Source: a virus
Strand: one strand, 5' to 3'
IMG/VR virus record: IMGVR_UViG_3300036852_000353
Span: 16,435-80,434 of that record
DNA: 64,000 nucleotides
Numbering within the stretch: the stretch's first letter is position 1; each line of letters starts with the position of its first letter. Under the pieces are notes generated by a model, which did no database searches, was not told the origin of the DNA, and was given only the letters and a program-made list of their open reading frames with translations. This document shows, piece by piece, positions 1,335-38,553 of the stretch. Position numbers and translations under genes: made by a program.

Positions 1335-1643
1335 TCACTCGATCTCGCGGTAGCAGGGAATCACCCACGCGTTCTCACCCGCCGGACGCCACCCCGCCAG
1401 CGCCGTCAGCGCCAGCTTCTCCACTTCCGACATGGACAGCGCCCCATACATCGCCCGCCGGTCCGGCATCCACCCCAGATCGATCAGCCGGTGCCCGAGG
1501 CTGTTGCCGGGGAAGTAGCCATGCTGCACATCCTGGTCATGCCACAGCTCATGCTTCTCGATGTCCGTGCCCGCCACTGACAGCCACCACTGCCCGAAGT
1601 CATCGATCCACGCACGGGCGATCCGCATGTCATACCTCGTCAC
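1335..1643 (-). CDS. Hypothetical protein
   Basis: GGAGG RBS, GTG overlapping the recombinase stop. Confidence 0.6.
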   Translation of the reverse strand: MTRYDMRIARAWIDDFGQWWLSVAGTDIEKHELWHDQDVQHGYFPGNSLGHRLIDLGWMPDRRAMYGALSMSEVEKLALTALAGWRPAGENAWVIPCYREIE

Positions 1644-2674
1644 ATCAAACCCTCCGTCACACTCTCCTGCTCCTCCGGCCGGTTGTAGCGGTGCACCTGC
1701 GTCCCCTTCACCGACCACCCGCCATGCTCGGCGATCATCATGGACGGCTTGCCCGCACGAAACGCCATCGTCGCACCCGAAGCCCGTGTCGAGTGTGCCC
1801 GGTACGTACGCCCCGACGGCGCCGTGATCCCCGCCTCCAGCGTCGCGCACTTGACCACCCGGCCCAGCCAGTCGCCTTCCAGACGGTAGTCGAGGACCGT
1901 GTAGCCGAAGGACGTCTTGCGCATCTGCCGGAACAACGGCCCGCTGTGGATGCCCTTCGAGCTGAGCACGTTCACCCAACGCCTGAGCGCCCAGACCGCA
2001 TCCGACATCGGATGTGCGCCGCGGTCAACGACGAGCCGACGGCCGCGGGCGCGCTGGTCCTCCTTGGACTTGGCGATGGTCATGACGACCTTGCCGTGGG
2101 TGAAGTGGATGTCTGCGATGTCCAGGCCCACGATCTGCGAACGCCGCGCGAACGCACCGGTCGCCAGCAACAGACCCGCCCGGTCACGGATCCCAAGTGC
2201 CGTATCTCCGGGCAGAGTTGCGCTCATCGCACGCAGCTGCTCGATGGTGTAGGTGGCCGCCTCATCCGGCCGCCAGCCCGACTCGATCAGCCTGCGCCGG
2301 TACCCGGCCACGATCCGCCAGCAGTCCTCCCGGTCCGGCATGTGACGCTCGGCCACGTTGTGGACGTTCTTGTGGAAGAACACCACGGCGGAGATGCCCT
2401 GCTCGATCACCGTCTGCGAGTGCCCGGCCGTGCACCGGTCGGCCACCCAGTTCGTGAGGTGGTCGGTCAGCACCGGCACCGGGTTGATGTCGTTGTACTC
2501 GCACCACGCAAGGAACTTGCCCCACTCGCGCTTGTACGCGTTGTACGTCTGCGTCGGGACCGAATCGAACAATTGTTGCCAGGCGTTGGCCGACAGACGG
2601 GACCGACGCGCCGGAAGCTGAGCTGACGGGGCATCAGATTCTTCGTCAGGATCGATTCTGACGAGAGTGGTCAT
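1640..2674 (-). CDS. Tyrosine recombinase (Cre-like architecture)
   Basis: RDRAGLLLATGAFARRSQ box I, HSTR (HxxR), GGW and RY C-terminal motifs; N-terminal SAM-like core-binding region; ATG overlaps the HIT stop. Confidence 0.9.
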   Translation of the reverse strand: MTTLVRIDPDEESDAPSAQLPARRSRLSANAWQQLFDSVPTQTYNAYKREWGKFLAWCEYNDINPVPVLTDHLTNWVADRCTAGHSQTVIEQGISAVVFFHKNVHNVAERHMPDREDCWRIVAGYRRRLIESGWRPDEAATYTIEQLRAMSATLPGDTALGIRDRAGLLLATGAFARRSQIVGLDIADIHFTHGKVVMTIAKSKEDQRARGRRLVVDRGAHPMSDAVWALRRWVNVLSSKGIHSGPLFRQMRKTSFGYTVLDYRLEGDWLGRVVKCATLEAGITAPSGRTYRAHSTRASGATMAFRAGKPSMMIAEHGGWSVKGTQVHRYNRPEEQESVTEGLM

Positions 2675-3063
2675 GACGACCACAGCTCCGGAGTGCAGTT
2701 CGGGACCGCCTGCCGGATCCCGCCGCGAGGATCCTCGACGTCCCCGAAATGCCGGGGGATCATATGGATGTGCAGGTGGTCGACGGTCCTTCCGGCCGCC
2801 CGCCCCTCGTTGACACCGATGGTGAACCCATCAGGATGGTGCTCTTCCACCAGGCGCTCGCGCGCGGTCACGCTCAGCGCATAGGCATCAGTCACCTCCT
2901 GCGCGGTCAGATCGAAGAAGGACTCCACGTGCCGCTTCGGCACGACTTCCACATGGCCAGCAGCGGCCGGGAAGTTGTCGTACCGGACGTAGAACGTCTC
3001 GTTCTCGGCCAGGATCCGGTTGAGATCGGCGCGGCCCCGCTGACAGAACAGACACACAGGCAT
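2671..3063 (-). CDS. HIT family nucleotide hydrolase
   Basis: CLFC N-terminus, GHVEVVPKRH, GRTVDHLHIHMIPR histidine triad. Confidence 0.92.
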   Translation of the reverse strand: MPVCLFCQRGRADLNRILAENETFYVRYDNFPAAAGHVEVVPKRHVESFFDLTAQEVTDAYALSVTARERLVEEHHPDGFTIGVNEGRAAGRTVDHLHIHMIPRHFGDVEDPRGGIRQAVPNCTPELWSS

Positions 3064-3174
3064 TCCGCCTCGATGATCGATCAGATGGTTGTCCACCTGA
3101 GGTTGACGCTTGTCGTAGTAAGGCAGCTTACACCAACCACCGTAAACCCCGAGTTGACAAACGAGGAGTTGATC

Positions 3175-5103: not shown

Positions 5104-5120
5104 CAGGTCGTGCGTACACC

Positions 5121-5354
5121 ATGAGTACGGAGAACATGATGTCCAAGATGCCTGACCTCCCGGAGTACACCTTTACGGTATCCACGGAGGGGTTCGACGG
5201 TATGCAGCGTGATGACAAGGTGGAGGCTGCGTACTTCCAGGAGTCCGGCCAGTACACCGTACTCAAGGACGCCACTCACGTGCCGGTGAGCGCGTTCAAG
5301 ACGGCCACGGTGCTGCAGATCAAGCGCTCGGCAGAGCCCCTTGACTTCGACTGA
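5121..5354 (+). CDS. Hypothetical protein
   Basis: ORF overlapping the TerL start. Confidence 0.65.
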   Translation: MSTENMMSKMPDLPEYTFTVSTEGFDGMQRDDKVEAAYFQESGQYTVLKDATHVPVSAFKTATVLQIKRSAEPLDFD

Positions 5355-6851
5355 CGTCGATCTGGAGCAGCTGCGGGACCAGGTCGAACGGCTGGTGCGG
5401 ACCGGTGACACGAAGCGGCTGAAGCTGGTGCATGCGCAGCTGAAGGCGGCGGTGGACCGCAAGCAGGCGGCTGAGCGTGCGGACCGGTGGGCGCAGGATC
5501 CCTCCGCGTGGGTCTCCGACCGGCTGGGTCAGCTGGTGTGGTCGAAGCAGCGCGAGATCATGGAGTCGGTGCGGGACAACCGCAAGACGGCCGTGAGGAG
5601 TTGTCACTCCTCGGGAAAAGTCATGTGGCTTCGCTCATCGTGGCGTGGTGGCTGGATGCGCACCCGCCGGGCGAAGCCTTTGTAGTCACCACCGCACCCA
5701 CGACGGCGCAGGTCCGTGCCATTCTCTGGCGGTATATCCGCCGGATACAAAGACAGCACAATCTGCCGGGCCGTGTGAATCAAGTCGAGTGGTTGATCGA
5801 CGAAGAACTCGTTGCTTTCGGACGGAAGCCTGCCGATACGGATGAGGCTGCGTTCGTCGGTATCCACGCACCCTATGTATTGGTTGTCATCGACGAAGCA
5901 TGCGGTGTGCCGGAGTCGCTGTGGATAGGTTCCGAGGCCATCACCACCGGTCCGTGGTGCCGTATCCTGGCCATCGGCAACCCCGACAATAGCGCCACTC
6001 ATTTCTACAAGGTGTCCCAGCCGGGTTCGGGCTGGAAATCGATCCGGATCTCCGCTTTCGACACGCCGAACTTCACCGGTGAGAAGGTGCCGGAGAAGGT
6101 GGCGGTCTCCCTCATCTCGCAGGAGTGGGCGGAGGAGAAGAAGCTGGAGTGGGGCGAGGGCAATGCCCTCTACAACTCCAAGGTTCTGGGTGAGTTCACC
6201 CTGGATGCCGCTGACACGGTGGTGCGTGCTTCCGATGTGGCGACCTGCTGTCTCGATACCGAGGCCGTCTACTCACCCGCCGATCTCTCCCCGGTGGAGC
6301 TGGGTGTCGACGTGGGTGGCGGGCTCGATGAGACCGTGGTGCGTGAGCGTCGTGGTGTGCTGGCCGGTCGTGAGTGGCGGATCCGTACGGACCGGCCGGA
6401 GAAGATTGCTCCGCTGGTGCTGAAGGCGATCCGTGAGTCGGGCGCGACCGCGGTGAAGATCGACTCGATTGGCGTCGGCTTCGGTGTGATCGGTGAGCTG
6501 CGCAATGCCGCTTCCCGTGGTGAGCACGCGGCCCGGATCATTGGGGTCAACGTCTCCGAGAACCCGCGGGACAAGAAGAAGTTCGCGAACCTGCGGGCGG
6601 AGATGTGGTGGACCCTCGGCCGGGAACTCTCGGCGCAGGGCGGCTGGGATCTGTCGCGGATGGAGAACGGCGACATCACCTGCGCGCAGCTGCTGCAGCC
6701 GCGGTGGGAGCTGGACACCAAGGGGCGAATCCTCGTCGAGCCCAAGGACAAGATCCGGGCAAGAACGGGCAGATCACCCGATAACGCCGACGCACTGCTG
6801 CTCGCGTACTACAGCGGGGCCAAGCCCCGTATCCGATTCCTCAGCAGCTGA
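5341..6851 (+). CDS. terL: Terminase large subunit, read across a -1 frame change at 5613-5619
   Basis: Frame 0 gives WSKQREIMESVRDNRKTAVRSCHSSGK; the -1 frame continues GKSHVAS...VLVVIDEA (Walker B), GNP, and a RNase H-like nuclease (LGVDVGGG, RSPDNADA). Confidence 0.9.
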
Positions 6852-7982: not shown

Positions 7983-9380
7983 ATGGCACGCACGCTTGTA
8001 GGGGCCCTCGTCCGGAACAAGGCCCCGGTCCCCTACGTACCGGCCGGTATGGGGCGCCGCGGGTGGCTGCCCACGACGATGTCGCCCGGCGGCATGCAGG
8101 CCCAGATGGACGCCGTCGGCCGCGTGGGCACCCTGTTCGCCATCACCGACCGCATCATCACCGCCTACTCGCAGGTCGAGTGGCGGCTGTACCGGGTGGC
8201 CAAGGACGGACGGCGCCGGTATGAGTCCGGCACCTCCGGCGCCACCGACGGCCGCATCGAGGTCACCAAACACCCCGTGCTGGACCTGTGGAAGCGGCCC
8301 AACCCGTTCTTCATGGGCAGCGCATTCCGCGAATCGGCACAGCAGCACGAAGAACTGACCGGCGAGCAGTACTGGGTCATCGAACGCAACGCGTTCGGCC
8401 TGCCCGCCGAGCTGTGGTTCGTACGGCCCGACCGCATGATGCCCATACCCGACCCGGAGAACTTCCTGATCGGCTACATCTACCGCGGCCCCGGCGGCGA
8501 AGAAGTCCCCCTCAGGGTCGAAGACGTCATCTTCCTGCGCCGCCCGCACCCCACCGACCCCTACCGCGGACTCGGCGCCGTCCAGTCCATCCTCGGCGAC
8601 CTGGACGCCCGCTACCTCTCCACCGAGTACAACCGCAACTTCTTCCTGAACTCCGCCACCCCTGGTGGAGTCATCGAAGCCGAGCAGAACATCTCGGACG
8701 ACGACTTCAACCAGTTCCAGGCGCGCTGGGCAGAAACCCACAAGGGAGTGTCCAACGCACACCGGGTGGCGATCCTCGAAGCCGGAATGAAGTGGGTCGA
8801 CCGCCGCTACACCATGGACGACATGCAGTTCGTGGAACTGCAGGAAGCCTCCCGCGAAACCATCCGCGAAGCATTCGGCTTCCCCAAAGCCATGACCGGC
8901 GCCACCGACGACGTCAACAAGGCCAACGCCTACGCCGGTGAAGTCATGTTCGCCCGGTGGATGACCAAGCCCCGCCTGATCCGCACCCGGGAAGCACTCA
9001 ACAACATCCTGCTCCCCATGTACGGGCGCTCCACCGCAGGCCTGGAATTCGACTTCGTCAACCCCGTCCCCGAAGACGACGAAATCTCCGCCCAAGTGCT
9101 GTTCAACAAAGCACAGTCAGCGAAATTCCTCGCCGAGACCGGCCAGTACGACGCGCGGTCCATCGCCGAAGTCTGCGGACTTCCGGACCTGAAGGAACTC
9201 GCCGACGCCCTCCCCATGGGCCAGCAGCAGCAACAGCAGCAGGAAGACCACCCCCTCGAACCCAAGAAGGACCCGGACGAGGACGGCCCCGTGCGCCCGG
9301 ACAAGCCCGTCAAGGACCCGAAGCGGAAGACGGAAAAAGAGCTTCAGCCCGACGACTGGCTCGACATTCTGCACCTGTAA
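7983..9380 (+). CDS. Portal protein (HK97 family)
   Basis: RPNP, LWFVRPDRM, GLGAV, FFLNSATPGG, ILEAGMKW, IREAFGFP motifs. Confidence 0.93.
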   Translation: MARTLVGALVRNKAPVPYVPAGMGRRGWLPTTMSPGGMQAQMDAVGRVGTLFAITDRIITAYSQVEWRLYRVAKDGRRRYESGTSGATDGRIEVTKHPVLDLWKRPNPFFMGSAFRESAQQHEELTGEQYWVIERNAFGLPAELWFVRPDRMMPIPDPENFLIGYIYRGPGGEEVPLRVEDVIFLRRPHPTDPYRGLGAVQSILGDLDARYLSTEYNRNFFLNSATPGGVIEAEQNISDDDFNQFQARWAETHKGVSNAHRVAILEAGMKWVDRRYTMDDMQFVELQEASRETIREAFGFPKAMTGATDDVNKANAYAGEVMFARWMTKPRLIRTREALNNILLPMYGRSTAGLEFDFVNPVPEDDEISAQVLFNKAQSAKFLAETGQYDARSIAEVCGLPDLKELADALPMGQQQQQQQEDHPLEPKKDPDEDGPVRPDKPVKDPKRKTEKELQPDDWLDILHL

Positions 9381-16336: not shown

Positions 16337-16479
16337 GTGATCTGTCGGTCGAGGATTTCAAGAACATTCTTCTGGACCTGTATCTGGTGCAGCGCGAGAA
16401 CGCCGAGCTGAGGGGCGAACTTGCGCTGCTCAAGCAGCCCCATCTCCTAGCAGAAGAGCGTGCAGACGAGGAGGTCTGA
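16333..16479 (+). CDS. Small coiled-coil protein (possible fibre chaperone)
   Basis: ATGA overlap; LYLVQRENAELRGELALLK heptads. Confidence 0.55.
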   Translation: MSDLSVEDFKNILLDLYLVQRENAELRGELALLKQPHLLAEERADEEV

Positions 16480-21320: not shown

Positions 21321-21710
21321 ATGGCTTTTCAGCGCAAGCGCAAGGTGTACCGGCTGGATTTCTCCGGTACCGAGTACGACGGCCTTGAGGTCCGGGTCCA
21401 GGGACTCACCACGGGTGAGTACCTGGAACTGGTCTCACTGACTGGTTCTTCGGGTGATTCGGAGAACGAGACCGAGCAGTTGCTGAAGCTGTTCGCCACC
21501 CACCTCGTCGCCTGGAACTTGCAGGATGAGGAGGGCGAGCCGGTGTCATCTGATTTCGCAGGCATCAAGGCCAACGATCTCGCGATGAACATGGCGATCA
21601 TCAACGCCTGGACGGATGCCATGGTGACGGTTTCGGCGGCCACGGAAAAAAAGTCGCTCGTTGGCGATCCTTCCCTGGTGGCGTCGATTCCGACGGAGAG
21701 TCTGTTGTAA
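21321..21710 (+). CDS. Tail assembly chaperone (short form)
   Basis: GGGAG RBS; LVAWNL motif; precedes TMP. Confidence 0.85.
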   Translation: MAFQRKRKVYRLDFSGTEYDGLEVRVQGLTTGEYLELVSLTGSSGDSENETEQLLKLFATHLVAWNLQDEEGEPVSSDFAGIKANDLAMNMAIINAWTDAMVTVSAATEKKSLVGDPSLVASIPTESLL

Positions 21711-38447: not shown

Positions 38448-38478
38448 ACAATGGTTGGCACTCTGTTGAGTTGTCTAG

Positions 38479-38553
38479 GACAGACGACGGGATTTGAACC
38501 CGCACTGCCCCCTCGCATGGCGGGGGCGTGCTGCCAACTACACCACGTCCGTC
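38479..38553 (-). tRNA. Atypical tRNA with His identity (G-1:C73) and ATG at the centre of the anticodon loop
   Basis: 8-bp acceptor GACGGACG/CGTCTGTC; CCCCC-GCCATGCGA-GGGGG anticodon arm; normal D and T arms. Confidence 0.6.

Follow-up and report, generated by a model that had tools for sequence, protein, structure and literature searches.

How does a soil phage make its large terminase (TerL) when the reading frame of the terL gene is interrupted in the middle of the catalytic P-loop? The question arises at positions 5341 to 6851 of a 64,000-nucleotide (nt) stretch of viral DNA (hereafter the window, to which all coordinates refer), which spans positions 16,435 to 80,434 of the IMG/VR virus record IMGVR_UViG_3300036852_000353. 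The 0-frame open reading frame (ORF; 5341..5685) starts with TTG, reads ...TCG GGA AAA GTC... and encodes only 114 aa. The -1 frame is open from 5' of the heptamer G_GGA_AAA (5613-5619) through 6851 and reads SHVASLIVAWW... from 5619 onwards, for 410 codons. At the junction the two frames overlap by exactly one base, and the break separates the K from the S of Walker A (P-loop HSSGKS). The predicted junction, ...SCHSSGK/SHVASLIV..., is identical residue for residue to in-frame relatives such as the homologue P0003. A first-pass annotation of this DNA had described a terL split at the heptamer, a 0-frame stop at 5685 and a -1 frame supplying the rest of the protein, all of which we could re-read in the sequence. 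Based on comparison of related sequences, we propose that TerL is made by an obligatory programmed -1 ribosomal frameshift and that unshifted ribosomes would produce a short N-terminal fragment, a reading that we consider correct with a probability of roughly 0.8.

The broken gene is, by prediction, the large terminase TerL, i.e., an additional strand, catalytic glutamate (ASCE) ATPase with Walker A and B motifs followed by an RNase H-like nuclease domain. This identification is based on PHROGs (phrog_2), fold, and synteny and not on Pfam, in which neither half of the broken gene gave a match. P0003, an in-frame homologue that is 91% identical to the -1-frame part in the window, matches phrog_2 (terminase large subunit) with an E value of 1.3e-31. 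Its AlphaFold (AF2) model (predicted local distance difference test, pLDDT, 87) was matched by Foldseek to Sf6 gp2, D6E, T4 gp17, and HK97 TerL, with E values down to 3e-19. In the model, a helical hairpin at residues 14-56 (H14-27, H30-56) is followed by helices H60-68 and H74-85, strand beta1 (E88-93), and then the P-loop HSSGKS. The alignment of homologues contains conserved GKS and DEAC motifs, in which G, K, S, D, and E do not vary. A portal gene (phrog_2662, E value 1.6e-68) is located downstream of terL at 7983-9380, and this order is the same in relatives. The source record comprises 111,555 bp with direct terminal repeats (DTR) and is rated 100% complete; the source virus is a complete 111-kb soil actinophage. 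The only phrog_2 match in the 111.5-kb genome is the broken terL, and a distant frameshifted member with a complete 59.6-kb DTR genome also has a single phrog_2 match. The records of L118 and L119 gave no phrog_2 candidate although both contain terL, which reflects the filter and not a missing gene. terL is thus an essential, single-copy gene in these genomes.

The window stems from a metagenome contig, and one extra G or A in the short G/A homopolymer would restore the frame, as expected if the break were a sequencing or assembly error. However, the independent Logan assembly of what is probably the source run contains a 58-kb contig (depth 13.7) that does not differ from the window over 5300-6300. 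In a second soil sample, a 496-nt contig of another strain extends across the site with eight single-nucleotide polymorphisms, no gap, and the same length. A third run yielded a more distant relative that has a net gain of one base and is in frame. Thirteen contigs, taken from Logan, ENA, JGI, and IMG/VR samples, have the same one-base break, and all of them carry GGGAAAAG at this place, and in each of them the last base of the match to the N-terminal part is the first base of the match to the C-terminal part. These 13 frameshifted contigs are from different samples and represent at least three lineages. Together with P0125 and the second-sample strain, they make up the frameshifted set, which covers at least 14 other environmental samples. 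Some 14 other samples, processed by different pipelines, share not only the break but also linked substitutions that are missing from in-frame alleles, which leaves an error a negligible chance. The break in the DNA is real and conserved.

Homologous terL genes share the split in 13 contigs, though most relatives are in frame. Around 30 relatives on viral contigs and nearly all of 120 database homologues (~500 aa) encode TerL without interruption and have GGN AAG, which is not slippery, at the corresponding site. Two database 'terminases', P0018 and P0024, are 407-408 aa long and start right after GKSH; their contigs share the break, GGGAAAA, and the stem arms (see below) with the window. A search with the 114-aa ORF retrieved 11 proteins, ten of which have out-of-frame tails after GK. 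The full lengths of the 0-frame products of relatives range from 102 to 149 aa, and their tails, which end 7-56 codons after the site, are not conserved. At the DNA level, a strict pattern had no match among viral contigs. A looser pattern led to the L111 lineage, and the pattern scan added three IMG/VR contigs of a lineage with 68% identity. Among GTDB species representatives the DNA pattern had two matches, both unrelated. Two-feature matches in the phages JackieB and Amavida were rejected as relatives, being only small overlaps with the gene upstream.

If the break is real, it could still be an inactivating mutation, with terL dead or dying in phages that are defective or rescued by another terminase. 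The in-frame state of most relatives and the lack of a cultured member would agree with such decay. The sequence downstream of the break, however, does not look like that of a decaying gene. The 410-codon -1 frame is intact in every full-length member, and the ratio of nonsynonymous to synonymous substitution rates (dN/dS) is 0.05-0.13 at dS 0.28-0.95 among close frameshifted members, including a clade in which all members are frameshifted (L111/L118/L119). Between frameshifted lineages, dN/dS is 0.12-0.29. These values indicate that the downstream frame is under strong purifying selection. Moreover, two complete DTR genomes do not encode a second terL, and compensatory changes in a stem downstream of the heptamer as well as frozen synonymous sites also contradict inactivation, which we regard as very improbable. 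In the first-pass annotation, a homopolymer error or an inactivating mutation was held to be as simple an explanation as frameshifting. The comparative data decide this point for frameshifting, because the break was recovered both from an independent assembly and from another strain, recurs in 13 contigs, and is accompanied by an invariant heptamer, a covarying stem, and purifying selection.

The heptamer G_GGA_AAA is invariant at the homologous place in 13/13 frameshifted contigs. GGGAAAA as such is not enriched in the window (four copies observed, 3.3 expected), i.e., it is the place and the conservation of the heptamer and not its mere presence that are beyond chance. Three of 28 distinct in-frame relatives also contain GGGAAAA, all in a non-slippery register. 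Seven nucleotides 3' of the heptamer, a distance within the 5-9 nt usual for stimulatory structures, GGCTTCGC (5627-5634) can pair without mismatch with GCGAAGCC (5671-5678). This perfect 8-nt stem had been recognized at first pass, and our analysis extends it to a helix of 10 bp (5627-5636 with 5669-5678) that includes one U-G pair. The 71 nt 3' of the heptamer have a folding energy of -34.2 kcal/mol (z = -2.56 versus shuffles). Across the alignment of the 13 members, all 130 of 130 cells of the 10-bp stem are paired. The stem covaries: three pairs have compensatory exchanges in the two arms (U-A/C-G, G-C/A-U, G-C/C-G), none of which alters the encoded amino acid. The covariation score was reached by none of 500 shuffles, and sliding the pairing partner left 30-53% of positions paired. 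An apical helix inside the hairpin loop is invariant and therefore outside the reach of covariation analysis. While frameshifted members have 10/10 stem pairs, the 28 distinct in-frame relatives have a mean of 7.0/10 and none has all ten.

A third element, a Shine-Dalgarno (SD)-like AGGAG 12 nt upstream of the heptamer, was missing from the first-pass annotation. It is present in 10 of the 13 frameshifted members and in none of the 28 distinct in-frame relatives, and is absent in L111/L118/L119. Signals are thus found only with the break. In the clade to which the window belongs, synonymous variation is suppressed at these elements only: identity at synonymous sites reaches 1.00 in the AGGAG codons, in the heptamer, and in both stem arms as compared to 0.2-0.6 elsewhere, and at the same codons of in-frame relatives it is 0.13-0.47 (0.13-0.27 for the AGGAG codons). 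The signal codons are rare in this phage, with AGG accounting for 7% (Arg), AGT for 6% (Ser), GGA for 7%, and AAA for 14% of their synonymous sets. The compensatory stem changes and the frozen synonymous sites therefore indicate selection on the site itself.

The same elements bear on two explanations that would yield functional TerL without ribosomal frameshifting. In the first, RNA polymerase would add one A in the A run and so generate an in-frame mRNA. Productive transcriptional slippage needs about seven or more A's, and the run is only four A's long. Furthermore, such slippage would account neither for the conserved G_GG in the heptamer nor for the 7-nt spacer and the covarying hairpin. 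We thus regard transcriptional slippage as extremely unlikely, despite the homopolymer at the site and the use of such slippage by some phages and insertion sequence (IS) elements (PMC5009743). In the second, TerL would be a split terminase that assembles from an N-terminal piece and a C-terminal piece initiated separately in the -1 frame near the P-loop. Gene callers indeed place the start of the C-terminal part of P0018 and P0024 at a GTG four codons after GK, and ten members possess a -1-frame TTG four codons before GGG, directly after AGGAG. Yet the spacing between AGGAG and TTG is 0 nt and too short for initiation, and both the TTG and the downstream GTG are missing in L111/L118/L119, the GTG also in L090. 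A C-terminal piece that starts after GKSH has no P-loop, and the N-terminal piece contains GKV or GKA and not GKS, so neither piece would possess a complete Walker A motif. A split terminase would also leave the invariant heptamer and the covarying stem without a role, and is in our view improbable.

We therefore return to programmed -1 frameshifting, the signals of which are listed in Table 1, and infer that slippage occurs as follows. When a ribosome in the 0 frame has GGA (Gly) in its P site and AAA (Lys) in its A site, the 10-bp hairpin, 7 nt downstream, would be at the mRNA entrance and, in most lineages, the anti-SD sequence would still be base-paired with the AGGAG located 12 nt upstream. 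In a tandem slip, both tRNAs would move back by one base and pair with GGG and AAA. Translation would continue at AGT and give ...HSSGK-SHVAS..., i.e., a canonical Walker A, and a full-length TerL of ~503 aa that would be the same in length and motif as the in-frame homologues. Ribosomes that do not slip would terminate 7-56 codons further on, depending on the relative, and release a fragment in which the N-terminal helical hairpin and part of the ATPase fold are followed by a tail that is not conserved. Such a fragment is most likely a by-product, since according to the model it has no ATPase core and since its end is not conserved. TerL would then be supplied at a fixed, sub-stoichiometric level while its mRNA is translated at a higher rate; the first-pass annotation had likewise suggested a limit on active TerL. 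Setting the dose of TerL would be the simplest reading of the purpose of the shift, its efficiency being equally a matter of inference. The tail chaperone of the same phage (21321-21859) has a -1 site A_AAA_AAG at 21647-21653 (0 frame ...ATEKKS...), and its -1 frame is open to 21859, where a 1192-aa tape measure gene starts. Given this canonical site, the same genome already exploits host ribosomes for -1 shifting.

Several observations weigh against an obligatory frameshift. Most relatives are in frame and do well unshifted, and the two states are interleaved on the tree, so that the shift can be dispensed with and might be close to neutral. Relatives do not share the 0-frame stop, the L111 lineage has no AGGAG, and G_GGA_AAA, ending in A rather than G, is the weaker form of the slippery sequence in Escherichia coli. 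Metatranscriptome runs cover small shares of the stretch (0.04-0.07 of sampled words). In INPHARED there is no cultured relative closer than ~40% identity.

Table 1. Elements of the interrupted terL gene and its putative frameshift signal (window coordinates)
Feature	Position	Strand	Description
terL 0-frame part, codons 1-93	5341..5619	+	N-terminal helical hairpin, adenine-binding helix, beta1, and first half of P-loop (…SCHSSGK); aligns to residues 1-99 of in-frame homologues
SD-like AGGAG	5596..5600	+	12 nt 5' of heptamer; rare codons AGG and AGT
Putative slippery heptamer G_GGA_AAA	5613..5619	+	-1 slip would give GGG AAA, then AGT (Ser), completing Walker A GKS
Spacer, 7 nt	5620..5626	+	Between heptamer and stem; equal length in 13/13 members
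5' arm of putative 10-bp stimulatory helix	5627..5636	+	Evidence: covariation
3' arm of 10-bp helix	5669..5678	+	Evidence: covariation, folding
Apical helix GGUGG (5647-5651)/CCGCC (5664-5668)	5647..5668	+	Inside hairpin loop; RNAalifold consensus and minimum-energy fold of the window
0-frame stop TAG	5683..5685	+	Ends 114-aa non-shifted product; position not conserved among relatives
terL -1-frame part, 410 codons and stop	5619..6851	+	Rest of ATPase domain and nuclease domain

Frameshifted and in-frame alleles of terL are interleaved on the protein tree. The frameshifted state requires ten changes on a tree of 155 rows and six on a careful tree of 102 rows (bootstrap range 6-6; at least five changes forced by well-supported branches). 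Forcing the five members of the window's clade together, a group that was chosen after inspection of the tree, decreased the log-likelihood by 156 units (approximately unbiased (AU) test, p = 0.003). The interleaving of the two states, with at least 5-6 switches, therefore implies recombination or repeated gain and loss. The frameshifted contig L085 and the in-frame L125 are near-identical sisters that are set apart by clustered synonymous changes in ~60 nt around the site, and sliding identity plots have mosaic breakpoints at the frameshift site. In each frameshifted allele, the residues before GK (SS, GA, or GV) are of the type of its own lineage. These data would therefore be equally compatible with recombination of short tracts, with repeated gain, and with repeated loss of an old state. 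The protein sequence favours an easy gain of the signals, because G-K gives GGN AAR, R-S can be written AGG AGT, and the codons for A-S-L and G-E-A are near-complementary. As a separate observation, terL is mosaic more generally: at 5341-5700, nucleotide identity of the window to L005, L083, and L082/L089 jumps between ~75% and 93-100% over tens of codons.

It is tempting to speculate that AGGAG, heptamer, and hairpin form a cassette, i.e., an adaptive, exchangeable terL allele that was moved, gained, or lost by recombination at least 5-6 times across this family of soil actinophages. Throttling of TerL or a broken P-loop DNA target might then allow escape from TerL-sensing immunity (Avs-type sensors of the signal transduction ATPases with numerous domains, STAND) or from homing endonucleases. 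We think this scenario possible but unlikely; if true, recoding in terL would be a counter-defence trait.

Textbook examples of programmed frameshifting in tailed phages are the tail chaperones and a small number of capsid genes but, to our knowledge, not the packaging motor. The mechanism proposed here would be of a known kind, -1 programmed frameshifting; the gene appears to be new for it and notable, and the mix of frameshifted and in-frame alleles unusual. Tail chaperone G/GT frameshifts (lambda type G_GGA_AAG) are nearly universal in long-tailed phages, and both of their products are needed in a set ratio. terL shares with them the class of virus, a GGGAAA-type slippery sequence, and the direction of the shift. 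In contrast, only the shifted product of terL has an obvious function, and its site is restricted to a minority of otherwise in-frame relatives. In OrfA/OrfAB of IS3-family elements and in retroviral gag-pol, the catalytic protein is only synthesized by the minority of ribosomes that shift, which results in a low dose of enzyme. The catalytic protein of terL would likewise be made via the shift only. However, the upstream product of these systems is functional and has a conserved end, whereas the 0-frame tail and stop of terL are unconserved.

In its architecture, the terL signal resembles that of E. coli dnaX (tau/gamma), which consists of A_AAA_AAG, an upstream SD-like element, and a downstream hairpin (Blinkowa & Walker 1990; Larsen et al. 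1994, cited in PMC10732093). Both have a stable hairpin ~6-7 nt 3' of a heptamer with a Lys codon, and both genes encode ATPases; in the 10 of 13 frameshifted members with AGGAG, the layout also agrees in an SD-like element ~10-12 nt 5' of the site. The terL heptamer differs in being G_GGA_AAA, its site is inside the catalytic P-loop, and one lineage has no SD-like element. In addition, the shift in dnaX produces the short form, whereas in terL it would produce the long, essential enzyme, with a 0-frame product that has an unconserved end. The first-pass annotation had known of no such case for terminases. Our literature searches by phrase and by term likewise turned up no terminase for which a frameshift is described, but candidate UUA-triggered bypassing, a different mechanism, has been proposed for the large terminase gene in Streptomyces phage Hau3 and in prophage StrepC.1 (Smith et al. 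2013; PMC5009743; PMC10732093). Hau3 is similar in that recoding is proposed for the terminase of a Streptomyces-type phage, the frame is broken in a conserved part, and few members of the family are affected. It differs in belonging to another terminase family and in the combination of a rare UUA with a short non-coding block and hopping, as opposed to the predicted one-base tandem slip in our phage. terL in the window contains no TTA at or near 5590-5640, and its two frames overlap by exactly one base at the junction. Finally, 'savior' or corrective indels with compensatory frameshifting have been described, and an insert in T4 gene 60 protects against a homing endonuclease (PMC5009743). As in these cases, an indel in an essential gene would be tolerated through translational compensation, and inteins do occur in terL of this phage group. 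No endonuclease targeting the P-loop codons was found, however, and the elaborate, covarying stimulators argue for more than tolerance.

If programmed frameshifting operates in terL as proposed, a slip of the ribosome is the only way to complete the catalytic P-loop of an essential enzyme. The support from comparison is unusually clean, comprising the invariant heptamer, the compensatory exchanges in the stem, the restriction of the signals to broken genes, and the strong purifying selection. Annotation pipelines will split terL genes of this type or discard them, and databases already hold 'terminases' of 407-408 aa without a P-loop (Walker A). The site would also represent a natural three-element -1 signal for high-GC Gram-positive hosts, for which few have been characterized. 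Frameshifted and in-frame alleles in near-identical backgrounds furthermore provide a natural experiment on what the frameshift is used for, be it dose control, an extra product, or escape from nucleases or immune sensors.

Three further features are of minor interest. One of the relatives, L031 (IMGVR_UViG_3300045976_000118), encodes a terL (1420-3100) with an in-frame LAGLIDADG-type insert of ~345 aa, probably an intein, inside Walker B (DEAC/…/GVPE), and P0040 carries PF14528. A link between intein and frameshift site was rejected, as the L031 intein is located in Walker B and not in the P-loop. Upstream of terL, an ORF of ~70 aa (~5120-5354) overlaps the terL start by 14 nt and is conserved at the same position in L082, L084, L086-L090, and L126; it had no PHROG match, and a small terminase was not identified. 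ARAGORN predicted a tRNA-His with anticodon ATG at 38478-38552, one of six tRNA genes in the window.
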